From an uncultured Gammaproteobacteria bacterium (GTDB taxonomy: Bacteria > Pseudomonadota > Gammaproteobacteria > JACCXJ01): DNA of 64,000 nt. Positions within the stretch are counted from its first letter, which is position 1, and each line of letters starts with the position of its first letter. The notes below the pieces were generated by a model that saw only the letters and a list, made by a program, of their open reading frames with translations, had not been told where the DNA came from and made no database searches. The stretch lies in NCBI GenBank assembly GCA_963764725.1, contig CAVXTM010000018.1:544001-608000 (forward strand), given 5' to 3'. The translations under genes were made by a program, and so were the position numbers. Below are positions 1 through 13,401 of the stretch, one piece after another.

Positions 1-205
1 CCTTGCGCCGCGCGATTTCAGGCCTCACCTTCAGTTTGCGGGTAGTAGCAACGAAGTATTCCTGCAGAACCTGTGTGGAGATCACGCCGCTACGCTGGAG
101 CCGTGCCTCCTCGACGAGGTTGAGAGCCGCCGTTTGCTTCTTGGGGGCATCGTGGTCATCCGTGTACACCAGTATGTTGCTATCGAAAAAACTACGAACG
201 CCCAT
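1..205 (-). CDS. vapC: PIN-domain (VapC-like) toxin; 5' part only, runs off window start
   Basis: Manual translation from ATG at 205: MGVRSFFDSNILVYTDD...ISTQVLQEYF; PIN motifs DSNIL and QVLQE; overlaps antitoxin stop. Confidence 0.85.
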   Translation of the reverse strand, partial: MGVRSFFDSNILVYTDDHDAPKKQTAALNLVEEARLQRSGVISTQVLQEYFVATTRKLKVRPEIARRK

Positions 206-419
206 GCAACTCCTCACGGTCGAAGCGCCACCCTCGTGAATGGCCCTTGCTCTTCTGGCTCAAACGGCGCAGCTCCTCCATTTCCTCTTGAGCCTCACTC
301 TGGCGTGTCAGCTGTTCGAGATAGTCGCGCACGAGTTGGTTCAGACTCTTTCCCATGGCTTGGGCAACTTTGCGCGCCTCTTCGGCGACCTTTTCGTCGA
401 TGGACAAGGTGATGTTCAT
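192..419 (-). CDS. DUF6364/CopG-like RHH antitoxin
   Basis: MNITLSIDEKVAEEARKVAQAMGKSLNQLVRDYL...WRFDREELHGR; directly upstream of PIN toxin. Confidence 0.8.
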   Translation of the reverse strand: MNITLSIDEKVAEEARKVAQAMGKSLNQLVRDYLEQLTRQSEAQEEMEELRRLSQKSKGHSRGWRFDREELHGRS

Positions 420-446
420 AGGGGACCTCTCTGCGGTGACAAATAA

Positions 447-479
447 GCACATACTATGTGCGCGCACATTATGCGTCAA
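447..479 (-). promoter_or_regulatory. Sigma70 promoter and palindromic operator of TA operon 1
   Basis: Minus strand TTGACG-17-TAGTAT overlapping palindromes GCACATA-C-TATGTGC and ATGTGCGCGCACAT. Confidence 0.6.
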
Positions 480-553
480 TCATTGGCACTGCGACTTGTT
501 TTTTTTAGTTGCTCTCAGCATGTAACGCAACGAGGGCGCGATTTGGCTTGCGA

Positions 554-785
554 GACTTTTGCGGGACGTCGTTAGACACTGTTAGACACCGTACGACATT
601 CTGTGTGCAACGGGCTCGGGCAACTGTATCGTTAAATCAATGACTTATAGGTAGAGCAGGTGACTGAAAATCCCTGTGTCGGCGGTTCAATTCCGTCCCT
701 GGCCACCAATATAATCAATGGCTTGCAGCATTTCTACCCCGCTCACTTGTCTAATATTTTCGCGTTTTTTCTAATTTGTTAGACA
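554..785 (+). repeat. attP-like junction, copy 1 (arm sites, IHF box, 3' tRNA-Phe fragment, IHF box, arm sites)
   Basis: GTTAGACACT/GTTAGACACC tandem 571-590; AATCAATGACTTA 635-647 and AATCAATGGCTTG 713-725 match IHF WATCAANNNNTTR; TGTCTAA 748-754 and GTTAGACA 778-785; 554-711 repeated at 6638-6795. Confidence 0.8.
650..708 (+). pseudogene. 5'-truncated tRNA-Phe(GAA) fragment (att core)
   Basis: GGTAGAGCAGGTGACTGAAAATCCCTGTGTCGGCGGTTCAATTCCGTCCCTGGCCACCA; no 5' acceptor strand, 5' side of anticodon stem mispairs. Confidence 0.9.
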
Positions 786-914
786 GCAATTATTTTGGAG
801 CTGACGTAAGCCTCGGTTGTTATGAAGGATTACGTACGCAAACAAAAGCGAGCAGGGGACGCTGTTCTCGCGGGTTGCTATAGGGATGCATATCAAAGAT
901 GCAGGACTGGCTGC

Positions 915-1149
915 CGCATCTTTTGCGCATAGTCAACGAGTGGACCTCGTACTACAACACAGTACGTCCGCACCGGTCGCTCGGTCCTGGGATCCCAAGT
1001 CCTCCGGACACCTTACCCGTCGCTGTTACATCGTACCGACTTCCCGGACAAGCGGGACGTTTTCGCACGCCCTTTGCTTGGCGGCCTGCACCACGATTAT
1101 CGGTTGGTGCCAGTCGCGGCATGAGTTCGGAAGATAATTGCGGACGACA
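915..1149 (+). mobile_element. C-terminal fragment and right end of an IS481/IS3-like integrase-core element
   Basis: LLRIVNEWTSYYNTVRPHRSLG; homologous to 5480-5719; ends TTGCGGACGACA. Confidence 0.75.
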
Positions 1150-1252
1150 GTCACTGCCATTGAACAAGTTTTGCTGGATATCGCATTGTCATGGCCTATT
1201 CAAAACACCTGTGGCGGCCTAGACTTGGATTTCGCCTATTACAGGTTCGGCG

Positions 1253-1759
1253 TCAGACGGCTCGACTGTCATATGCCCAATGTAGTAGTGCCTGCCTCTG
1301 CTTCCTTCGGCAACTCACATCCGCCTTTGCGCACCCCTTCTTGATCTGAGCAATATGTCTTGTCATCGCTTTCCATCTCTTGATCTGACGTTCGTCATCG
1401 GGACATCTCCTGCCCATAAAGTACCGGCAGTACCACTGAAACCACCCCCGCGGGTCCTCGCTATAAATCCAACCCTTTTCCTCCCACACAGCCAATGCCT
1501 GGGAGGCGTTGACGCCAAAGCAATTCAGGTCAGGATCGTGGCACCTGTGACAGAGTTTAGCCCCTGCAAACCAATCTCCGGGGAATTCGTCCGTACAGTC
1601 GGTCATGTATTTCCCGCCAAACACACCCAGCTCGAGCATCTGCTTTGGAGTTAGCTCAGGTTTGAAGTCAGCGTGATAGTTCTTGCCCATCGGTTCGGTC
1701 AGGAAATAGACGTAATTGCTTTGCATGAGGTCCTTCACAACTACTCTGCGCTTCTTCAT
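1253..1759 (-). CDS. Conserved hypothetical protein (TPKQMLELGVFGG...DPRGWFQWYCRY...RQALLHWAYD family)
   Basis: Intact 168-aa ORF with family-like Trp/Arg motifs. Confidence 0.8.
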   Translation of the reverse strand: MKKRRVVVKDLMQSNYVYFLTEPMGKNYHADFKPELTPKQMLELGVFGGKYMTDCTDEFPGDWFAGAKLCHRCHDPDLNCFGVNASQALAVWEEKGWIYSEDPRGWFQWYCRYFMGRRCPDDERQIKRWKAMTRHIAQIKKGCAKADVSCRRKQRQALLHWAYDSRAV

Positions 1760-2103
1760 GGCTCGTTTCTACGGTTCAGTCTGCGCGTTTAGCTCTATCA
1801 CGAGATAGCCACAAATGGTGCAGACCGCTGCGGTCCCCGTTGCGCCCAGCTCGCCGCCTCGCGAGCCTCCGTGCGGAAATGGGCGCGTGGCTGTGATGAA
1901 ACTCATGCTCAGGCGTGCTCGGCTTACCTGCCTTCGTTACGATTAAGGTAAGCCAACGATATCTGCGACAGCGTCGCCTCACAAGATGTACGCACTGAGT
2001 ATTTTATGTTTCGGGGATTGAGCCATAAGCGACCAGACTTGCCCGTTTCGATGTCCAACAGAACACAAAAATAAAAAATTAGCACTGTACGGAATGCAAG
2101 GCT

Positions 2104-2166
2104 GAACTAACGTACAGATTAAGCGGCGGCCACGCTTTGTGTTGGCCGTCCGCTTGAACGCTTGGC
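2104..2166. other. Integron attC-like site, one end interrupted
   Basis: GAACTAAC box, then stem AAGCGG-CGGCCA / TGGCCG-T-CCGCTT with one extrahelical T. Confidence 0.6.
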
Positions 2167-2380
2167 GTACGCCCGACATGGGCATGAACTTATGGGGTGA
2201 AAGCCCCCTGTAAGAGTATCGGTAATGTCTATTATAGGACAAATGCAACTACTAGCCGACGGCAAGGGCAATCCCGCGAGGGGTGGTCTGAAGGAAGCCC
2301 GAGCGCAAAGGTGCGAACCGACGGACCGAAATCGCATAGAAGTCTCCGGGCGAGTCAGCACAAGATGACGAAGCCCACCG
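2167..2380 (+). mobile_element. Group IIC (attC-type) intron, 5' domain I fragment, no RT ORF
   Basis: Starts GTACGCCCGACATGGGC...GGGTGAAAGCCCC; contains GCAACTACTAGCCGACGGCAAGGG...GTGGTCTGAAGGAAGCCCGAGCGCAAAGGTGCGAACCGACGGAC, as recalled for IIC-attC introns. Confidence 0.75.
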
Positions 2381-2384
2381 AGGT

Positions 2385-3085
2385 ACAGGTGTCTTGGTAA
2401 TGCCTCCGAGGAGCTGCTGGAGCGCGGAGTCATCAACGATGAGGGGGTCGGTCAGTAGGTAGTGCATCTCCACAAATTGCCGAAGGAACGGGTCGAAAGG
2501 CCCAGGAGACGCAGCATCATCTTGCCGGCAACCCCGTAACGTGGGCGTGCCCCATAGGCCAGCCGTGCGAGTTCAAGCTGAGTCGTGATGCCGTCGCCCC
2601 CAAGGGTTCCACGCCCGTCCGAAGGCCGAAGGAGTGTCCAGGAGCTTTGTCACCACCGGGTCAACGTCGGGTACGAACATGAACTCGTGCGGTCGGTCGA
2701 TCGGACCGATGAGTTCTGCTTTACGATTCTGCTTTGCCGCGACGAAGAGGTCACTGAGCAAACTTCGTTCGACACCCGGCCCGTAGAAATCCGGCAGGCG
2801 CAAGACAGTGGTTCTAATCCTGGCGGTGGTGTGCGCTTCCAGGACACGGTTTTCCTGTTCCTTGCGCTTCCGTCCCTTGAAGGTATGAGGCTCCTTTGGA
2901 TGATCCTCTGTCACACGCGCACTCTGCGGCCGGCCGAAAACGTACAGCGTACCGATAAGGAGCAGGCGGTCAACCTTTTCTGAGATCGCAGCATCGATGA
3001 CGCGGCGCATCAGGAGATGAAAATCCGTGTATCGAACGCCAACCATATAGACGACAGCTGGGACGCCCCTGAGAGCAGCCCTGAT
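2385..3085 (-). pseudogene. NAD-dependent epimerase/dehydratase, frameshifted and truncated
   Basis: GTLYVFG, LRLPDFYGPG, HEFMFVPD; C-terminal MHYLLTDPLIVDDSAL in another frame. Confidence 0.75.
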
Positions 3086-3213
3086 GGACTGTGCTGCGCA
3101 TTTAATCTCCGACCGGGCGTTACTCCGGTTTTTGGCCCGCCGCTAGCTAGCAAGTCGCTGAGAAATCGGTGTAACCTGATCGCATGGGATTCGTTCGTCA
3201 GGCCTTAAATTGT

Positions 3214-4596
3214 GGGTCTTCGTGAAAACGTGTGGGTAATTTTGTTTCCATGATCACGCTGCAAGGCTTGCTCCGCAAGGGATTACGCCCGGTTGAAGGG
3301 ACGGTAATTTCTGGCATGCTGTGGCGATGGCTACCCAACGCAAACGCTCTCGTCGTCTCACCGACACATACGCCTTTGACGGCTTTCGTCCACAAGCAAC
3401 GGTACGCGGGGTTTTCGGGGAACCGAAGGTCCGCATCGTCACGCTCGTACGACGCTCAAAAAAACACGCTGTGGAGTCTGCGGTACGTTGCATCGCGGTT
3501 GGTACGACAAGAAGCTGCGGCAGGTTCGAGATCTCTCCTGCGGGGATACGCACGTGCGGCTGGAGTTGGAGGTCCGGCGTGTGGATTGCCGGCAGTGCGG
3601 CAAGGTGAAGCGCGAGCGTCTGGACTTTCTGGCCGACAACCCTTTCTACACCAAGCGCTTTGCTTTCTACGTCGGGCGGCGCTGCCGCACGAGCACCATC
3701 AAGGCGGTGGCCGATGAGTTGGATCTCGACTGGCAGACGGTCAAGGAGTTGGACAAGCAATACATGGGTGCGCAGCTTGCACGGGCTGGCCGGCCAGGAC
3801 CTGCGGTTATCGGCATCGATGAGATCGCCATCCGCAAAGGTCACACCTATCGCATCGTGGTCAGCGATCTCCTCCGTGGCCGACCGATCTGGTTTGGCGG
3901 GACTGACCGCTCTCAGGCCAGCATGGACGAATTCTTCAAATGGCTGGGGCCGCGTAAAACCAAGGGGGTGCGCTTGGCTGTGATGGATATGTGGAAGCCG
4001 TTTCGCAACAGCACCAGAGAACAAGCGCCCCAGGCGGCTATCCTGTTCGACAAATTTCACGTGACGCGTCATCTGGGCGAAGCGCTCGATAAGGTCCGCA
4101 AGGGGGAGTACGCCCGACTCAGCGGCGAGAAACGTACCTACATCAAGGGCCAAAAATATACCCTGCTCTCCCGGCGGGAGAATCTGACCCTCGATGGTCG
4201 AGCTGCCTTGAAGAGGCTCCTCGCCGCCAACAAGCGGCTGAACACTGCTTATCTGCTCAAGGAATCTTTCGGCCAATTGTGGAGCTACGAGCGTGAAGCG
4301 TGGGCGCGACGTTTCTTCGAGAACTGGCGTAACGCGCTTAAATGGCAGCGTCTGAAACCGTACGAGAAATTCGCCGAGATGATCGAGCGCCATTGGGATG
4401 GGATCGCTGCTTATTGCAAACCAGAGAACAAGATCTCTCTCGGATTCGTCGAAGGACTCAACAACAAGATCCGCGTCATCCAGCGCCGCGCCTACGGACT
4501 CCGCGACGAGGATTACCTGCGCCTCAAGGTGCTTACCTGCATGCTGCCGGTACTGTGAAAACACCATTTTCTACCCACTCACTTTCACGATGAGCC
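3214..4596 (+). mobile_element. ISL3-family insertion sequence, complete
   Basis: Imperfect IRs GGGTCTTCGTGAAA / TTTCACGATGAGCC; perfect 8-bp TSD TAAATTGT (3206-3213, 4597-4604). Confidence 0.92.
3327..4558 (+). CDS. ISL3 transposase (short orfA plus -1 frame orfB joined at an A7 tract near 3459-3465)
   Basis: Zn finger, GIDE, MDMW, FDKFHV, EGLNNKIRVIQRRAYG motifs. Confidence 0.9.
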
Positions 4597-5693
4597 TAAA
4601 TTGTTTTGTCGACCTCGTTGCGCTTAGCCGCACGCTCGTCGCAAACGGCCTACGCTTTCTAGCCCTCTGCATGAAGAGCCGCCCGACGCTCGCGGCGGAG
4701 ATTCTCTTTCTTCGAAAACAGCTGGCGTTCTATCAAGAACGGAAACTGGTTCCACGACGCTTTGACAACGCTTCGCGCTATCTCCTCGTGCTGCTCTCGC
4801 GTTGCTTTGACTGGAAGGAGGCTCTCGTCAATGTCACCCCGAAGACATTAATCGGGTGGCACCGCGTCGGGTTTCGACTGTTCTGGCGTTGGAAATGCCG
4901 GCGTGGACGACCTCGGATCCCCGTAGAACTTCGCGCGCTGATCCGCCAGATGGCTCGCGATAATATAAGTTGGGGAGAAGAACGCATTGCTAACGAACTC
5001 TTACTCAAACTCGGGATCCACCTCTCCCCGCGTACCGTTCGTAAATACATGCCGCAACCTCCACCGGATCGAGCGCGAGGTGATCAACGCTGGTTAACCT
5101 TCATACACAATCACGCCAACGCGATTGTGGCCTGCGATTTCCTAACCGTCGTTACCGCGTCTTTCAAATGTCTCTATGTCTTTGTGATCATTGATCTCGG
5201 AACCCGAAAGCTGTTGCACATCCATGTGACCGATCACCCGACCGCTAACTGGACACTACAACAGTTGAGAGAAGCTATGCCCTCTGACCATCCGTATCGA
5301 TACCTGCTGCATGACCGGGATAACATCTTCTCCGCCGATCTGGACGCGTCCATCAAGAAATTCGGTTTGCGTGTTTTGAAAACTCCCTACCGCAGTCCCA
5401 TGGCAAATTCGTTCTGCGAACGCGTGATCGGAAGCCTACGCCGAGAATGCCTGGATTTCTTGATCCCATTAACCAAAGGGCATTTACTGCGAGTCGTACA
5501 AGAGTGGTCCACCTACTACAACACGGCACGAGCCCACATGTCGCTCGGTCCCGGGATCCCAAGCCCACCCGAAGCATTATCCGTAGCACTCGGAGAACAC
5601 CGACACCAGCCTCCCCAGAGCCAGCAGGTTTGGGCGCGCCCTGTTCTGTGTGGGTTGCATCATGATTACGTGCTGATGCCTGTACCTGCGTGA
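4597..5693 (+). pseudogene. rve integrase-core transposase, first ~10 codons separated by ISL3
   Basis: GRPRIP, WGEERIANEL, ACDFLTV, LHDRD, ERVIGSLRRECLD. Confidence 0.85.
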
Positions 5694-5721
5694 GTCCGGA
5701 AAGATTCTTGCGGAGGACAAT

Positions 5722-5845
5722 TGACCTCTTTCGGTGTGAATCGATTTTGCTGCACAGCTATTGGGTCATGGTGGTCATCGATGTGTTTAGCCGACGGCTC
5801 ATCGGGCTCGCTGTCGAGCGCGGACACCTGGATGGAATCGCGTGG
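5722..5845 (+). pseudogene. Short integrase-core fragment
   Basis: DLFRCESILLHSYWVMVVIDVFSRRLIG. Confidence 0.6.
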
Positions 5846-5911
5846 TATACAAAAACTCGATCGAGCCTGATGCACCAGGATCTTACCTCGACTGAAGGGG
5901 AACGAGTTCCG

Positions 5912-6304
5912 CTAATCAGTGCGAAGGTGGACGGAATTTATCCGTAGCCATGCCGCAAAGGCCTCTTCGGAAAGGCTACCGTCTGCCAGGCTGACCATCG
6001 TCCTTACGCAGGCCGCATTGTCAGCTATAAGCTCGTACCCGTTCAGGGCCAGAAAGAGCTCTGTCACCACAAAGGCTGTTCGCTTGTTACCATCCACGAA
6101 GGGATGATTACGTGCGATCCCGAATCCATAGGCGGCTGCGATAGCAGGAATGTCGGGGTCGGCGTAGGCTACGGTGTTTCTGAGTCGTGCGAGCGCGGAC
6201 TGCAGCAACCCGAGGTCGCGCACACCGGTGGGACCGCCGTGCTCGGCAAGGTGCTCTTCATGTAGGGCAAGAACGATAGACTCCTCGAGCCATACGATCG
6301 ACAT
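5912..6304 (-). CDS. doc: Death-on-curing (Fic/Doc) toxin
   Basis: HGGPTGVRDLGLLQSAL and HPFVDGNKRTA Fic motif. Confidence 0.95.
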   Translation of the reverse strand: MSIVWLEESIVLALHEEHLAEHGGPTGVRDLGLLQSALARLRNTVAYADPDIPAIAAAYGFGIARNHPFVDGNKRTAFVVTELFLALNGYELIADNAACVRTMVSLADGSLSEEAFAAWLRINSVHLRTD

Positions 6305-6528
6305 TACTTCGCCAGCTTACGCAGAACATCACGGCGCTTTTTCATGATTTGCCGGGCGATGGTCATCTGGATCTCGAACTCCGGGCTATAAGGTGTTAGG
6401 CGGTAGCCGTCTGGGGATTCGGTCAAGAACACCGTGTCACCTTTCTCGAGCTTGAGCTTGGTCAGGACCTCTTTTGGCAGCACCATACCGATCGAATTTC
6501 CAATGGCGGTAAGTTTGAGGGTCGGCAT
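6304..6528 (-). CDS. AbrB/MazE-family antitoxin
   Basis: MPTLKLTAIGNSIGMVLPKEVL...LEKGDTVFL; coupled to doc. Confidence 0.92.
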   Translation of the reverse strand: MPTLKLTAIGNSIGMVLPKEVLTKLKLEKGDTVFLTESPDGYRLTPYSPEFEIQMTIARQIMKKRRDVLRKLAK

Positions 6529-6541
6529 GAGAGGATCTCGC

Positions 6542-6586
6542 GTTATTACTTGTGTAATAACATAGTGTAGACCCCGAGAGTTGTCC
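6542..6586 (-). promoter_or_regulatory. Promoter and operator of TA operon 2
   Basis: Perfect inverted repeat GTTATTAC-TTGT-GTAATAAC (6542-6561); minus strand TGGACA-17-TATGTT. Confidence 0.65.
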
Positions 6587-6637
6587 AGAGAGAAATCGGG
6601 CACCTGGCTAGGAAATGCTTGTCAATTCGGCCAGCGG

Positions 6638-6867
6638 GACTTTTGCGTGACGTCGTTAGACACTGTTAGACACCGTACGACATTCTGTGTGCAACGGGCG
6701 CGGGATACTGTATTGTTAAATCAATAACTTATAGGTCGAGCAGGTGACTGAAAATCCCTGTGTCGGCGGTTCAATTCCGTCCCTGGCCACCAATAGAAAC
6801 AATAGCATGTGTGCCATTATTCACTTACATGTGGTCCGCAATTTTCTAAACGAACTGCCTTAGACAC
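6638..6867 (+). repeat. attP-like junction, copy 2, with 3' tRNA-Phe fragment (ends 6792)
   Basis: 6638-6795 aligns without gaps to 554-711 with 7 substitutions; right arm diverged but keeps TCACTT, TTTTCTAA and TTAGACA. Confidence 0.8.
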
Positions 6868-7009
6868 TCTTACTTTGTGGGGTCTACCTTGTCCCTGTCT
6901 GTGGCGAATCATCAATTGTACCGAGAAATTCGAACTCAATTCAGCCTTGTATATCCGTGCGTAACGGGTAAGGTAAGTGGATGCGAGAAGCTTTCGTCCT
7001 CCTTGCTTA

Positions 7010-7150
7010 TCTTCACGACGCTGGTAAAGCGGCATCGGATTCCGCTGGCGGCCTTCGCCTATATCGGTAACGACGTGAACGATATCCCGGCCGTCGCGCT
7101 GACCGGTCTCTCGGCTTGTCCGAGCGATGCCGTGGTAGAGGTCCGGCCAG
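7010..7150 (+). pseudogene. KdsC-like HAD phosphatase fragment
   Basis: AYIGNDVNDIPAVALTGLSACPSDAVVEVR. Confidence 0.65.
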
Positions 7151-7193
7151 CGGGTGCGGGAGGAAAAGCAATAGCGCTCGACAGCGTGCGGCG

Positions 7194-7895
7194 ATGCGCA
7201 TGAACGCCCTCCGGTTCTTGATCGGCACGACACGAGCCCGCTGTCTCGCTTTGGCGAGCAGTTTGGCATGGGCAAGCCTCGCTGGGTGCGCGGACACGTC
7301 TCCCGAATGCCGGGACCTCCTCGCGCAGGCCCACGAGCGGGCCGAGAGGGGGAACCTCGATGCGCAGTTTAAGCTTGGACAGATGTACGAACACGGGGGG
7401 AAATGTGTCGCCGTGGATATGCAGGCGGCTGCGAAATGGTACCGCCAAGCCGCGGACAGTGGGCATGCCGGTGCGCAAAAGGTCTTGGGTTTCATGTATG
7501 CGGGCGGCGTCGGCCTGGAGGAAGACACGAAGCAGGCTGTCTATTGGTTTCGCAAGGCCGCCGAACAAGGCCACCCCGAGGCCCAGGTCGGTTTAGGCAT
7601 CGCATATCTGCGCGGGGTCGGGGTCCCCCAGGACCTCGATGAGGCCACAAAGTGGCTGCGGCGATCGGCCGAGCAAGGTTTCGCACGGGGTCAATTCAAC
7701 CTCGGTCATTCCTACGAAACCGGACAGGGAGTGCCGCAAGATTATGTGCAAGCGTATATGTGGTACAAACTGGCCGCTGGCCGGTACCCGAAAGCCGACA
7801 GGGCCCTCAAGCGTCTGGCAGAAACAATGACGCCGCAGGCGGTCGAAAAAGGAAACCGTTTAGCCAAAGATTGGAACGAAGCAGCGGTCGATTGA
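7194..7895 (+). CDS. Sel1-repeat lipoprotein
   Basis: Lipobox LAGC; about 4 Sel1 repeats (AQFKLGQMY, AAEQG). Confidence 0.9.
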   Translation: MRMNALRFLIGTTRARCLALASSLAWASLAGCADTSPECRDLLAQAHERAERGNLDAQFKLGQMYEHGGKCVAVDMQAAAKWYRQAADSGHAGAQKVLGFMYAGGVGLEEDTKQAVYWFRKAAEQGHPEAQVGLGIAYLRGVGVPQDLDEATKWLRRSAEQGFARGQFNLGHSYETGQGVPQDYVQAYMWYKLAAGRYPKADRALKRLAETMTPQAVEKGNRLAKDWNEAAVD

Positions 7896-8084
7896 CGACA
7901 TCACCTCGATGTTAGATACCTCGACGACGGTGCCGACGGCCACCCGGCTCCAGTTCTCGGCAGCACGATAAAGCAGTCGGCCGCGCTCATCGAGGTCAGC
8001 AGGGCCGAACCCTGAGGCCCGGCGCTAGCCCGGATTTCTCGTGCGCCGTGCAAAGGCACGGTCTTTCAGCGGGTGCGAACCCGC

Positions 8085-8285
8085 CCGGTAACTCAGTGAG
8101 GCAATCTCACTTCTTCGATGAGCGACTGTGCACGCGATGGCGAAAGCGCTCGCCATAAATCGTATCTCGATCGCGTAGCAATAGCGGGGTGCCGTATCCC
8201 AGGGGAAGGCCCGACGATTTGTTGGGCTACCCATGTTGCAGCCGATGAGTAGATGGGCCAGAAGGACGAAGAGTTCTCGCGTGCC
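8085..8285 (-). pseudogene. Degraded integrase-core fragment
   Basis: AFPWDTAPRY followed by RDRDTIYG in another frame. Confidence 0.6.
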
Positions 8286-8387
8286 CCTACCTTACCAACC
8301 CGGCATGCCTAGACAAGACGACGATTAGCAGGAATTTTCCCTCGAATTAGCGGTTCGCCACACACAGGTAACGACCGAGGCAGAACA

Positions 8388-9743
8388 ATGCTCACTGGCA
8401 GCTTTACCGGCAAGGTGCCCCCCGGCCCGCAGGGCATCCGATTACTTACCCTGTTATTCGCGATGCGGAAAAATCCGCTCCGGTTTCTCACCGAGGCTGC
8501 GCACCGCTACGGAGAGGTGGTTTTTCTCGGCTGGGGTGCCAAACGAGTCTATTTTCTCAATTATCCAAGTTACATAAAACAGGTTCATTCGGATAAGCCA
8601 GCAAACTACGCCAAGGACCCGCGAGTCGCGCGGATCAAGCCACTTTTCGGGGACGGTCTGACGACGAGTGAAGGCGCTCTTTGGAGGCGCCAGCATCAGA
8701 TGATTCAGCCCTTCTTCCACCTAAAGAGGATCGCGGCCTTGGCGCCCCTCATCACCGCGGTGACTGCCAAGAGGCTGGAGCACTGGCAAAGAGCGGCTGC
8801 GGCTGGGGATCGGCTCGATATCGAACTGGAAATGAGGGAGCTCACGCAGGCCATCATCCTCCGGGTGCTCTTCGGCCAAGACCTCCCCGATTCCAAGGCC
8901 AAAGCGATCGGACAGGCATTGCGATTCGCCCTTAACCATATTAACCATCGCGTGTGGGCGCTTTTTGACTTTTCTTCCTTACCCACCCGAAAAAATCGCC
9001 TTTTCCTTCACCACCTACGCACGCTCGATCGATTTGTCTACCACAACATCACTGAGCACTGGCGCAACCCGGCCGTCTCGGATGACCTGCTCGCGCTGCT
9101 TATCGGCGCCCAGGCTGGGGAGCATGGGGAGGCGATGAGCGATCCTCAGCTGCGCGACGAAGCCATGACACTCTTCGTCGCGGGCCACACGACCATGGCG
9201 GCCGGGCTCGCATGGACCTGGTATCTTCTTGCAAAGCACCCGGCGGTGGAAAAGAGGCTTGTCAAGGAACTCGAAGGCGTGCTCGGCGGTCGCGACCCAA
9301 CCTTTGAGGACCTTGCGACCCTGCCTTTGACGCGTAGGGTGATCGAAGAGGCGCTACGGCTCTATCCTCCCACGTGGATCATATCCCGTTATTCGCTTTC
9401 GGATGATGAGATCGGCGGTTACCCCGTCAGGGCACATTCTGCAGTTTTGATCAGCCCTTATGTGCTCCACAGAAACCCGACATTTTGGGACCATCCCGAG
9501 GAGTTTGATCCCGAGCGTTTTACTCCTGAACGCTCGGCCAACCGTCCGAGTTACTCGTACTTGCCCTTCGGAGGCGGGCCACGGGTATGCCTAGGTAAAG
9601 CCTGGGCGCTTATGCAAATGCAGTTGATCTTGGCGATGGTCGCGCAGCGGTACCGGTTGAAGCTAGCGCCTGGATGCCTGGTGAGACCAGAGACCGGCAT
9701 CATGCTTTGCCCTCAGGGTGGGCTAATGATGACGGTCCATTAG
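8388..9743 (+). CDS. Cytochrome P450
   Basis: EALR K-helix, FDPERF, FGGGPRVCLG heme cysteine. Confidence 0.95.
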   Translation: MLTGSFTGKVPPGPQGIRLLTLLFAMRKNPLRFLTEAAHRYGEVVFLGWGAKRVYFLNYPSYIKQVHSDKPANYAKDPRVARIKPLFGDGLTTSEGALWRRQHQMIQPFFHLKRIAALAPLITAVTAKRLEHWQRAAAAGDRLDIELEMRELTQAIILRVLFGQDLPDSKAKAIGQALRFALNHINHRVWALFDFSSLPTRKNRLFLHHLRTLDRFVYHNITEHWRNPAVSDDLLALLIGAQAGEHGEAMSDPQLRDEAMTLFVAGHTTMAAGLAWTWYLLAKHPAVEKRLVKELEGVLGGRDPTFEDLATLPLTRRVIEEALRLYPPTWIISRYSLSDDEIGGYPVRAHSAVLISPYVLHRNPTFWDHPEEFDPERFTPERSANRPSYSYLPFGGGPRVCLGKAWALMQMQLILAMVAQRYRLKLAPGCLVRPETGIMLCPQGGLMMTVH

Positions 9744-10207
9744 CAACCCTAAAGCTCTCGGACCATGCGTCGTCATGCGATCCTTGGTCATCGCGTAATG
9801 TCCAAACATACGATTGCGCATGGTATCAATCCTTCCGCGCCTTGGTAGACCACCGGACTACAGCAGGTACGCCCTTGGGAAATGCAGCCAGGGAGGCTCG
9901 GACATTCCGCAACCCAATAATTGTCCTCCCCACGGGATATGACGACCTGTCGCATGGTTTAACCCTAGACAATCGAATACGAACAATTATATTCCGCCGC
10001 TGGTTGTACCGACATATCGGAGAAACTGCAACGAGTACTCGCCAACCGCCGCGGACATCACCGAAAGATGGCCGGACGCGATTAAGTCGAAGAGGTTGGG
10101 GTCTCTCGTTAGACAGGCTGTTTACGCAGCACGCCCCCTCGTATGCCGGAGTGTAACGTTAGTGCCGGGGATCTTGGTCCGCGCGATTCGGGGGGGCGTT
10201 GCTATGA

Positions 10208-10503
<296 letters not shown>

Positions 10504-10504
<1 letters not shown>

Positions 10505-10940
10505 TGGTTTATTTGGACACCAGCATCGTCGCGCCCTTGCTCCTACCGGAGGCCACGAGCGATGAGGTGGAGCGGTATCTTCAGAACTTCTCTGCAGGCG
10601 AGCTTCGACGAGCGCTTGGACCAAAGAGAGTTCGGCTGATCTCTCGCAAGCGGAAGATGAGCGAACTCGACAAGCGACAGCTGATGAAGTGGGGCCGAGC
10701 TACGATCGCATGCTGCCGAATCTCGAGTACTGTTACCGAGCAGCGGACTACGAGCTCGCGCCGAGCTTCTCAAGACCGCAAAACTGGCTGCGCTGGAGAT
10801 CGGCTGCACCTGCTGTGGCCCACAACCAGGGTGCTGACAACGTCCTTTCGCTCGATGCGGGCCTGATCAAGGCAGCGAAGCAACTAGGAATACCTGCTGA
10901 CACTGGCATTAAACGACCCGAGGCCGGTAATCCCCATAGG
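10504..10940 (+). pseudogene. vapC: PIN/VapC toxin, frameshifted
   Basis: MVYLDTS start; LR-AGD-LHLL and LSLDAGLIKAAKQLG in different frames. Confidence 0.75.
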
Positions 10941-11074
10941 CGACGATTAACCAACCGGTTACGGGGGCACGTCGGCCTATGGAAAAACCGAGCACATCGC
11001 GCATGAAAACGGTGAGCCACGACAAGGACGTCAACGTACGGCGCCAACGGCATGCGATAGCGTCGGTGAGATTT

Positions 11075-11088
11075 ATGATCTAGATCAG
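11075..11088. promoter_or_regulatory. Near-consensus FNR/FixK box upstream of DUF3141 operon
   Basis: ATGATCTAGATCAG versus TTGAT-N4-ATCAA. Confidence 0.5.
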
Positions 11089-11247
11089 GTTGTCGGGCCT
11101 TTGATATAGTAAACTGAACCGCTGAATACCGTGCTTCCAGTCCGCGGTATTTGCAAGAAAAGATCGCCGGCTGCGCCAATGCGTCGGTCAGCGATTCGTG
11201 AATTTCTTCCAGCAATCTCTCACGGCAATCTATGGAGGGGGAAGAAA

Positions 11248-13401
11248 ATGAAAATCAAGGGGCGTGATACCGAACGGGGCGACTATTCTCTTCCTTTTCT
11301 GGCTCCCATTCCGCTAGCCCAAGCCTGGGATTACCTGATCGATGCCGGCCAGCGCACGATCCTGTTCCTCGATATCTTGCGGGAGCGCGGCAATCAATAC
11401 CTCCAACAGGCAGCGGAGACTGTACCTCACGCGCTCGACTACGAGTTCGAGCTCATTATGGATGGCCGCTCGCTCAAGCGGCCCGTCAACTATGGTCTCA
11501 TACAGATCAAGCCGCCAGCGGGCAAGAAGGTGGATCCGAAAAACCGTCCGGTGGTCGTCATCGACCCGCGCGCTGGCCACGGTCCTGGCATCGGCGGGTT
11601 CAAGGCGCAGAGCGAGATCGGCATGGCCCTCGAGGCCGGTTACCCGACCTACTTCATCGGCTTCGCGCCCGAGCCTATCCCCGGCCAGACCATCGAGGAT
11701 ATCGCCGAGGCCGAGGCGCAGTTCCTTGAGAAGGTCATCGAGCTCCATCCCGGGGCCGATGGCAAACCCTTCGTCATCGGCAACTGTCAGGCCGGCTGGG
11801 CAGTGATGCTCGTGGCGGCGGAGCGTCCCGAGCTGTTCGGGCCGATGCTCCTGGCCGGCTCACCGCTCTCCTACTGGGCGGGCGTGCGCGGCAAGAACGC
11901 GATGCGCTACTCAGGCGGCCTGCTTGGGGGGAGCTGGTTGACTGCGCTCGCCAGCGACCTTGGCAACGGGAGGTTCGACGGCTCTCACCTCGTTGCCAAC
12001 TTCGAAAACCTTAACCCCGCCAACACGCTCTGGACCAAGCAATACGATGTCTGGGCCAAGGTCGACACCGAGGCGCCGCGCTACCTCGGCTTCGAGAAGT
12101 GGTGGAATGCGCACCCCCTCCTCAATGGCGAGGAGATGCAGTATATCGTCGATAACCTCTTTGTCGGGAACAAGCTCGCCACCGCCGAGATCGTGACCTC
12201 GGACGGGAAGCGCCTCGATCCGCGCAGAATTAAGTCCCCCATCATCTGCTTCTGTTCCTGGGGCGACGATATCACCCCACCGCCGCAGGCACTCGACTGG
12301 ATCCTCGATCTCTATGAAGACGTCAACGATATCCGCGCGCACGGTCAGACCATCGTCTACTGCGTCCACGAATCGGCTGGGCATCTCGGCATTTTTGTTT
12401 CGGGCAAGGTGGCGGTCAAGGAGTATCAGGAATTCGCCCACAACATCGATATGATCGACTGCCTGCCGCCCGGTCTCTACGAGGCGGTGATCCGGCCGAA
12501 GACCAAGCAGGATGCGAACGTCGATCTCGCGACGGGCGACTTTATCGTCCGCTTCGAGATGCGCACGCTCGACGACATCCGCGCACTCGGGTACAACAGT
12601 GTCATGGATGAGCGCAAGTTCGCCACGGTGGCCCGGCTCTCCGAGATCAATTTGGGGCTCTACCGCACCTTTCTCCAGCCCTGGGTCAAGATGATGGTCA
12701 ACGAGCAGACCGCGGAGTGGCTGCACAAGACTCACCCTCTGCGTCTGCAATACACACTGTTTGCTGACACCATTCCCTTCATACGGCCGGTGGCACAGCT
12801 GGCCGAACAGGTTCACGCCCAGCGCCGCCCGGCCTCGCCCGACAACCCGCTGCTGCTCCTCCAGGAGCAAGCCTCAAAGACGATCATCTACCTGCTCGAT
12901 GCCTACCGCGACCTGCGCGACCAGAGTTTGGAGGCGATCTTCCATGCCATTTATGGAGCACCGCAGGTACAGGCGCTGCTTGGCCTCAAGGCTACCGATG
13001 AGCCACCGCGCCGCCGGCCAGGTCTCGAGCCCGAGGAGCGCGCTTTCATCAACCAAAAGATTGCGGAACTTAAGGCCCGGATCTCGGAAGGAGGACTGCG
13101 CGAGGCGGGGATCCGCTCCATCGTCTATATCGGTCTCGCAGACGCCTTCGCCGATGAGCGCAACTTCGCGGTCATCCGGCGCCTGCGCGCGGAGCCGGAG
13201 TACAGCCTGCCGCTTGCTGAGTTCAAGCAGAAGCTGCGCGAGCAGTTCTTCATGCTGCTGCTCGACGAGGAGAACGCGGTTCGTGCAATCCCGGCCATGC
13301 TGCCTGAGGACCGTGACCAGCGGGAGCAGGCCTACGCGATAGTGCGGGAGATCATGCTCGCCGGCAGGCGAGCCGAGCGAAGAGAGGCGCCGCCGCCTTG
13401 A
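11248..13401 (+). CDS. DUF3141 protein (PHA-synthase-like alpha/beta hydrolase); probable frameshift near C-terminus
   Basis: DPRAGHGPGIGGFK, GNCQAGW nucleophile elbow, GDDITPPPQAL, GHLGIF. Confidence 0.9.
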   Translation: MKIKGRDTERGDYSLPFLAPIPLAQAWDYLIDAGQRTILFLDILRERGNQYLQQAAETVPHALDYEFELIMDGRSLKRPVNYGLIQIKPPAGKKVDPKNRPVVVIDPRAGHGPGIGGFKAQSEIGMALEAGYPTYFIGFAPEPIPGQTIEDIAEAEAQFLEKVIELHPGADGKPFVIGNCQAGWAVMLVAAERPELFGPMLLAGSPLSYWAGVRGKNAMRYSGGLLGGSWLTALASDLGNGRFDGSHLVANFENLNPANTLWTKQYDVWAKVDTEAPRYLGFEKWWNAHPLLNGEEMQYIVDNLFVGNKLATAEIVTSDGKRLDPRRIKSPIICFCSWGDDITPPPQALDWILDLYEDVNDIRAHGQTIVYCVHESAGHLGIFVSGKVAVKEYQEFAHNIDMIDCLPPGLYEAVIRPKTKQDANVDLATGDFIVRFEMRTLDDIRALGYNSVMDERKFATVARLSEINLGLYRTFLQPWVKMMVNEQTAEWLHKTHPLRLQYTLFADTIPFIRPVAQLAEQVHAQRRPASPDNPLLLLQEQASKTIIYLLDAYRDLRDQSLEAIFHAIYGAPQVQALLGLKATDEPPRRRPGLEPEERAFINQKIAELKARISEGGLREAGIRSIVYIGLADAFADERNFAVIRRLRAEPEYSLPLAEFKQKLREQFFMLLLDEENAVRAIPAMLPEDRDQREQAYAIVREIMLAGRRAERREAPPP

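Follow-up and report, generated by a model that had tools for sequence, protein, structure and literature searches.

What do the tandem fragments of a tRNA-Phe gene mean that recur beside unrelated toxin-antitoxin (TA) operons in the genome of an uncultured gammaproteobacterium, and do they bound cassettes that are moved singly or islands that have decayed where they inserted? The question is raised by a stretch of 64,000 nucleotides, here called the window (assembly GCA_963764725.1, contig CAVXTM010000018.1, labeled G000:C18:544001-608000, forward strand), to whose own coordinates all positions given without a contig refer. An earlier note, drawn from the sequence alone, had proposed an integron-like array of small elements that lack an integrase, are mobilized in trans and are stabilized by interchangeable TA modules. 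Its central observation stands: 554-711 and 6638-6795 are direct repeats of 158 bp, with 7 substitutions, no indels and a spacing of 6084 bp. Both repeats are insertion scars (att junctions) of mobile islands. We put at about 0.7 the probability that they belong to a tandem-accretion array of tRNA-Phe islands that decayed in place, leaving remnants like the cis-mobilizable elements (CIMEs) of other bacteria. One conserved family of right ends (attR), which occurs with five tRNA types or more, has a slot in which 12 or more unrelated TA modules are found, and across the junction there are almost none.

Both repeats share one anatomy. Repeat copy 1, the fourth of five junctions along the contig, has at its left edge an arm-type doublet, (TT)GCG[A/G]GAC-TTTT-GCGGGAC (548..567, plus strand), which belongs to the family-A right end of unit 4 and also occurs in family-A left ends, on their integrase side. 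It is followed by three 10-bp direct repeats, probable excisionase (recombination directionality factor, RDF) sites that share their position with viral 10-bp repeats (568..598, plus strand; GTTAGACAC twice and GTACGACA), a box matching the consensus for integration host factor (IHF; 635..647, plus strand) and a tRNA-Phe 3' copy recognized by its identity to the gene (650..708, plus strand), with a probable 7-nt overlap, CTGAAAA, at 664-670. Copy 2, the fifth junction, comprises the family-A right end of unit 5 (6634..6731, plus strand; arm doublet 6634-6651, 10-bp repeats 6652-6682, IHF box 6719) and a second tRNA-Phe 3' copy, likewise identified from the gene (6734..6792, plus strand); unit 5 is the stretch between the copies, 709-6792. 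The tandem GTTAGACAC that had been reported is present twice per copy, at 571, 581, 6655 and 6665. Judged against the familiar IHF consensus, perfect boxes (WATCAANNNNTTR) lie at 635, 713 and 6719, one in each repeat and a second to the right of copy 1, as described previously. Each tRNA copy is 59 nt long and carries GGTGA in place of the GGGGA of the gene, leaving the anticodon stem of both copies unable to pair as claimed; no tRNA was called in the window by ARAGORN, nor was a tyrosine recombinase found between the repeats by profile search. The TTAGACA motifs reported to recur to the right of both copies do exist, but the one at 6860 lacks conservation, the relative G005 having TTAAATA in its homologous end, and was rejected as a functional site; those to the right of copy 1 are part of an end family other than that on its left side.

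The array to which these junctions belong extends well upstream of the window. The sole tRNA-Phe gene called in the assembly by ARAGORN lies at C18:478928-479005, on the same strand as the repeats, and its anticodon-arm core recurs at C18:483967, 502729, 542062, 544666 and 550750. The search for an intact gene and further units upstream was thereby answered with a linked gene and three more junctions, the five co-oriented junctions spanning 72 kb with units of 5.0, 18.8, 39.3, 2.6 and 6.1 kb. At all five, unbroken identity to the gene begins inside the 5' side of the anticodon stem, which matches the expectation for anticodon-centered crossover, site class A of the Islander scheme (PMC4383910). 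The att anatomy and the upstream array together support the claim of tyrosine-integrase junctions with crossover in the anticodon loop, arranged in tandem at tRNA-Phe. Unit 1 has no left att end. The gene itself has had its 3' end replaced (the last ~13 bases, with no CCA); 12 intact-looking relatives have a normal tRNA-Phe 3' end and the altered joint occurs in 0 of the 14 relatives compared, all of them fragmented assemblies of other species, so that the alteration reflects a local deletion or else an error of assembly. Other genomes and metagenome contigs contain the same end types, and the end pattern was found in 13 GTDB records, 12 of them Gammaproteobacteria/Chromatiales metagenome-assembled genomes (one labeled USCg) and one from the Pyrinomonadaceae.

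Several further copies of tRNA sequence are dispersed in these arrays. An inverted tRNA-Lys(CTT) 3' copy lies on the minus strand inside unit 3 (C18:537200-537255; L001), and an intact tRNA-Lys(CTT) was not among the tRNAs called in the assembly; on another contig, CAT-anticodon and Arg(ACG) copies stand 1 kb apart between two Arg(TCG) copies (C5:134021-135055; L005). Such foreign att copies suggest the capture of pieces from other tRNA arrays. The tRNA half-core GAGCAGGGGA is repeated within left ends, at window 850-859 and at C18:502914 and C18:484033, and at C18:484030-484061 it forms a perfect inverted repeat with a 7-nt spacer that resembles a second symmetric core site.

Both TA operons beside the repeats are real. 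Upstream of copy 1, on the minus strand, lie an RHH antitoxin gene (192..422; DUF6364/RHH_1, Pfam), with a promoter-like site at 479-451 and a palindrome at 447-461, and the 5' part of a PIN (VapC-like) toxin gene (1..217; Pfam PIN E 1.8e-8 for the full frame) whose 143-codon frame runs left to C18:543789; together they are the last operon of unit 4. The last operon of unit 5, also on the minus strand, consists of an AbrB/MazE-fold antitoxin gene (6304..6528; TIGR02609 above cut-off), with a promoter-like site at 6587-6559, and the gene for a Doc (Fic-family) toxin (5912..6304; TIGR01550 above cut-off). The two unrelated operons begin 132 bp and 110 bp from their repeats and read away from them, within the 110-135 bp first given. 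Across the family, open reading frames (ORFs) in the ~0.75-0.9 kb inside family-A right ends were compared with Pfam. Of 153 candidate ORFs 138 were scanned, the other 15 overlapping with arms or known genes or being duplicates, and the count omits two ends whose flank is ~100 nt long, as well as one duplicate. A TA gene is found inside 18 of 28 informative A-type right ends (16/26 without the two window copies; 17/26 without the unpublished genome G001, which supplies two of the 28). Because the genomes compared are kin, these and the other counts across genomes, which ignore kinship, do not represent independent events; when grouped by inner flank, the ends fall into 19 independent clusters, of which 12 have TA genes. 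The modules of these clusters are RHH-PIN (two), AbrB-Doc, HicBA (two), TacA-TacT, Phd-PIN (two), ParE, AbrB-PIN_3 and FitA-PIN (two), and the idea of interchangeable TA modules is thus borne out family-wide by at least 12 independent modules inside the A-type right end. An NCBIfam search of the TA-negative ends added only an AbrB partner for one of them (L049).

The placement is polarized. On the outer side of the junction a TA gene occurs at 1 of 27 ends (ORFs of 62-200 aa, some flanks being short), and the array itself has TA genes inside 4/5 right ends and outside 0/5. Random 900-nt windows contain members of five TA families at 1.1% genome-wide and 7.7% within the array, values that are lower bounds because fewer families were searched. 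The slot inside attR is thus associated with many different TA operons, for which it is a hotspot.

Family-A ends are built in a fixed order, with the doublet GCGGGAC-TTTT-GCGGGAC followed by three 10-bp repeats, an IHF box and the tRNA copy, and have been found with tRNA-Phe, Lys, Arg and two CAT-anticodon tRNAs. Conservation among 27 A-type right ends climbs from 20-50% to ~90% at the arm doublet; visible damage affects 5 of 29 (L007, L029, L030, L036, L047). The GCGGGAC doublet is also found behind tRNA copies, where it overlaps the 3' end of a convergent integrase gene (C18:542151 and several relatives), and the doublet alone retrieved 13 viral contigs, five of which have an adjoining integrase 49-53% identical to the family-A enzyme. 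In a phage attP found by its protein (L121; integrase 62% identical), doublets lie on both sides of a tRNA-Phe core and GTTAGACAC is absent. Arm doublets and IHF boxes flank the core at both ends, the doublets being present at both ends of unit 4 and in L121. Because of this layout and of their co-occurrence with family-A integrases, the doublets are probably the arm sites of the integrase. The earlier proposal that GTTAGACAC is the arm site finds no support, since such sites are missing from L121, where GCGGGA doublets stand on either side, and was set aside as the primary reading.

The 10-bp repeats between arms and core are better read as probable excisionase sites, on three grounds. In the viral right ends L112, L120 and L121 tandem 10-bp repeats with a different sequence stand at this position (0/2000 shuffles each); L106, L108, L114 and L115 have none there (3/7 positive). 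A small ORF upstream of the intact family-A integrase has as its top Atlas match a 'DNA-binding protein' (0.96) and also matches an HTH_17 cluster (0.91) in which 15% of members carry the family, which we treat as a lead. Finally, HTH_17-type excisionases are described as binding in head-to-tail oligomers (PMC11963761).

A cognate integrase for family A does exist, and in the array it is broken. The check for a linked tyrosine integrase upstream led to a remnant in unit 4, 1.9 kb left of the window, that corresponds to residues 146-360 of an intact 362-aa enzyme in the relative G002 and is 92.6% identical to it; it is truncated at a 62-nt piece matching the ends of insertion sequence (IS) copies elsewhere in the array, an IS that we take from the look of its protein to be an IS5. 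In G002 the intact A integrase, the HTH_17-like ORF and an S24 repressor stand directly behind an intact tRNA-Phe, and in G005 an intact C-type integrase does so; an S24 repressor or ArdC adjoins the integrase in relatives. The A and C integrases have no significant overall similarity. None of the 16 PF00589 matches of the assembly is an intact A- or C-type tRNA-Phe integrase, and units 1, 2, 3 and 5 have no PF00589 match; tblastn of the assembly returned two A remnants (on C18 and C12) and a 32% relative of the C type at tRNA-Arg, and nothing else. C12 contains another decayed family-A element, ~21 kb long and lying at a CAT-anticodon tRNA (C12:109242-130593; L007, L008), with an integrase stub, SNF2/DUF1156 restriction-like genes, a HicB remnant and a truncated right end. 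No integrase is seen beside any B1 left end (C18 twice, C5, L031, L057), and searches for a B1 integrase found none, the two viral and two class-level matches obtained being probably due to chance. The related B2 left end is accompanied by the frameshifted 3' end of an integrase that resembles the C type (32% similarity) but not the A type.

Unit 4 has matched A ends at both sides and is shown by its remnant to be a decayed autonomous element whose integrase was lost in place. Unit 5 combines a B1 left end (family B; 709..914, plus strand; IHF box 713, TGTCTAATA 748, GTTAGACA 778 and the half-core-like GAGCAGGGGA 850, with no integrase behind it) with an A right end, that is, two different end families. 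Its left end is 95% identical over 260 nt to that of unit 3 at C18:502720, and the same type is found in G007 and L057; the unit as a whole is found neither elsewhere in its own genome nor in the 14 relatives. Both units keep their att ends and have no functional recombination or transfer genes, no search aimed at a relaxase having been made. Unit 5 is an IS-riddled mosaic, probably of hybrid origin. With ends of two families, no whole counterpart in a relative, a neighbor that lost its integrase in place and no intact cognate integrase, it does not fit the clean non-autonomous cassette first envisaged. Behind copy 2 follows the left end of a sixth, decayed unit of family C (GGTCCGCAATT; 6793..6893, plus strand), recognized by homology to G005:C60, where the genes for an intact integrase of 338 aa and for a DUF4224 protein come next; in the window the integrase and one of two motif copies are gone.

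Comparison among relatives bears out unit-wise shuffling of the junctions. Clustering by flanks of 15 internal tRNA-Phe junctions, from the genome itself, its relatives and two contigs found by pattern (a sixteenth was left out as having no upstream sequence), gives 14 right-by-left combinations of five right and seven left types, and five different left types stand directly behind an intact tRNA-Phe in seven same-genus genomes. The pattern still holds when the unpublished G001, source of two of the 15 junctions and itself one of the seven genomes, is left out. In four sequencing runs, the best of which hold at most 34% of sampled words, no credible excision joint was found, none of the runs being of the same strain. 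Two read joints (6540 to 12748, with a 23-nt side, and 4170 to 12665, with a 22-nt side and 11 foreign letters) were rejected as excision products, as they fall within shared repeat sequence.

These observations can be assembled into a course of events. Several unrelated families of tyrosine integrases, corresponding to end types A, B, C and others, would cross over in the tRNA-Phe anticodon loop, and each newcomer would insert at the gene, shift older residents outward and leave a tRNA 3' copy between neighbors; the anatomy is seen, while the order of events is a reconstruction from it. An intact element would be laid out as attL, convergent integrase, excisionase, cargo, TA operon and attR, a plan of which the two halves are each seen in relatives, although no complete element stands on one contig. 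Deletions linked to IS elements, together with recombination, would strip integrases and some junctions and so produce integrase-less and hybrid CIME-like units, the loss being documented for unit 4 and a hybrid origin being likely for unit 5. By analogy with the Shewanella island GI21, the TA operon at attR most likely kills cells that lose the element after excision. Re-mobilization would be expected only when an incoming cognate integrase pairs ends of the same family, for example those of unit 4 alone or of units 4 and 5 together.

Not everything fits an array decayed in place. TA genes are less frequent at other tRNA-Phe end types in relatives (3/8, two of the eight from G001) and at fragments of other tRNAs in the same genome (2/12), and where the most decayed units lie shows no clear relation to distance from the gene. 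The att ends are ~90% conserved across genomes even where no integrase adjoins, suggesting that they arrived recently or are still in use. Within the B1 left end lies GTTAGACA, the same sequence as the repeats of the A right end; the ends of unit 5 could on that account be cognate after all or the A right end serve two systems, and since no B1 left end has been seen with an integrase, B1 units may spread as integrase-less forms. These points lend themselves to an alternative that we consider unlikely, in which the units are non-autonomous att-bounded cassettes whose two ends are read by a helper integrase in trans, so that they excise, re-insert and reorder singly while the TA operon stabilizes them. 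The conserved ends and the B1 ends with their shared GTTAGACA would suit it, as would the A-right by B1-left junction that occurs twice with different TA modules (copy 1 and L057) and the att copies of other tRNAs inside foreign arrays. It is opposed by the lack of an intact A- or C-type helper integrase in an assembly that is 97% complete, by matched ends in just one of four fully bounded units, by the occurrence of unit 5 as a whole in 0 of 14 relatives, by the outcome of the read search and by viral relatives in which the 10-bp repeats at that position have a different sequence. A bolder variant, improbable as we judge it, would have att ends persist as functional integrase-free platforms, the A right end being dual-specific (GCGGGAC arms or GTTAGACA), units like 709-6792 being true cassettes moved by visiting integrases and the TA slot being swapped at the arm boundary. 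If this were true, the tRNA locus would be a multi-integrase, integron-like cassette array open to reshuffling.

The TA slot might instead reflect survival, with TA operons resisting deletion while the islands around them erode until they end up beside whatever end remains. The array does have a heavy IS load and much erosion, TA remnants occur at L007, L036, L056 and window 9788-9955, and the streamlining of islands to TA-only islets has been described (PMC13617665). Random erosion would not be expected, however, to yield the polarity of 18/28 inside right ends against 1/27 behind left ends, a TacA-TacT module stands at a right end that adjoins an open-frame integrase (L018, truncated by its contig), and in the same account TA operons do not long conserve their neighborhoods (PMC13617665), so that survival is quite unlikely as the explanation. 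An assembly duplication or chance repeat is very improbable. The tRNA-Phe 3' end, abnormal by comparison with relatives, does leave room for a local assembly error at the gene, but the repeats differ at 7 sites (4%), their flanks are unrelated, the same end types occur in other genomes and metagenome contigs, and contigs from other runs join each TA operon to its repeat; for these reasons duplication was rejected. An array of islands accreted in tandem and decayed in place accordingly remains the reading that we prefer.

The interior of unit 5 accounts for much of its mosaic character. Behind the B1 left end lie the 3' remnant of an rve-type (IS3/IS481-like) element (915..1149, plus strand; rve_3, 70% similar to 5502-5719), a 168-aa cargo ORF of protein-like composition with no Pfam or NCBIfam match (1253..1759, minus strand), a group II intron 5' fragment (2145..2421, plus strand; Rfam RF02001, 67 bits), the only hit of the Rfam scan, with related copies on four other contigs, and a cargo fragment of an NAD-dependent epimerase (2573..3046, minus strand; Pfam). 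A second rve-type IS3/IS481-like element with TGT..ACA-type ends (3090..5719, plus strand; rve/rve_3, the IS3 and IS481 models being below cut-off) is split by an ISL3 element (3214..4596, plus strand) with an 8-bp target duplication, TAAATTGT; three copies of the ISL3, at 98.8-99.9% identity, lie further up the array. Three of the four runs contain a 1391-nt skip joint at the ISL3, the insertion of which is recent. The ends of the rve-type IS-like elements look like the TCCGCA-type motif found at family-C left ends (1139-1149, 3090-3100, 5709-5719, 6830-6840), and rve-type elements often lie directly behind left ends, at the position expected for the integrase (e.g., L094). After junction 5, window 7116-9743 holds a Sel1-repeat protein gene, a MoeA C-terminal fragment, a cytochrome P450 gene and IS-end fragments. 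At 9788-10866 there follow a HicB remnant, 90% identical to the module inside the C12 family-A right end, and a Phd gene whose PIN-like partner is apparently broken; together they may be what erosion has left of the right end of a sixth unit that has lost its att copy.

The positional rule offers a handle for mining, as small operons just inside these attR arms become candidate TA or defense genes, and it provides a test of TA operons placed at attR for post-excision stabilization against survivors of erosion. The assignment of arm sites, excisionase sites and integrases makes the system reconstitutable from an uncultured host.

Integrons are ordered arrays of variable units, among them self-promoted TA operons, with attC hairpins as boundaries and a platform of intI, attI and Pc at the head. 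The array shares with them the order of variable units and the presence of TA operons. It differs in having double-stranded lambda-type att boundaries of several families (tRNA 3' copies with five right- and seven left-end types, against one attC family; no dedicated attC model search was run) and mosaic units of 2.6-39 kb, and no intI/attI/Pc platform was found at its head, the sole PF00589 match in the array being the lambda-type remnant. The term integron-like therefore does not hold for the features compared. Four IntI-like frames, recognized by eye and two of them apparently whole, do occur elsewhere in the assembly (C7:100016, C15:164741, C13:53278, C12:400997), unlinked to the array.

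Closer parallels are found among tRNA islands. CIMEs, as described for streptococci, are decayed elements that keep their att sites and move by accretion-mobilization (PMC7563491); they and their accretion arrays share with the present array att ends lacking recombination genes, tandem placement at one target gene and chimeric att junctions. The streptococcal examples derive from ICEs (integrative and conjugative elements) or IMEs (integrative and mobilizable elements) and form arrays of two or three (PMC7563491), whereas the array described here has five junctions, four or more right-end families and the TA slot at attR; the parents of the array units look prophage- or IME-like. The Islander account lists 125 tandems of two or more, with a tRNA gene and displaced 3' fragments as here, but counts only units with their own integrase (PMC4383910). 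In the tycheposon islands of Prochlorococcus elements are separated by partial tRNAs and degenerate remnants (10.1101/2020.12.28.424599). Both systems resemble the array in their anticodon-centered crossover, in newcomers that displace older elements and in the fragmented integrases and partial tRNAs that remain; the main text on tycheposons, unlike the present case, contains no 'toxin' (10.1101/2020.12.28.424599).

With respect to the slot, Shewanella GI21 has its integrase and excisionase genes beside attL and its TA pair, HipAB, beside attR; once the island has excised, HipAB keeps it from being lost (PMC8978831). GI21 and CGI48 thus have the same layout as the elements described here, but concern one island with one TA operon, at yicC or inside another island (PMC8978831), in contrast to at least 12 TA modules at several tRNA targets. 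In the M. abscessus prophages described, TA genes lie close to att in just two cases, though polymorphic toxin cassettes do occupy such positions (PMC8092301), and in the Photorhabdus account TA operons are weakly associated with integrases, in neighborhoods that are not conserved (PMC13617665). A literature search that covered subscription journals thinly and excluded supplements turned up neither an account of an exchangeable TA slot at attR common to a whole family nor one of islands in this lineage. The array itself is mostly of a known kind; what is new is the quantified, polarized TA slot at a conserved attR family.

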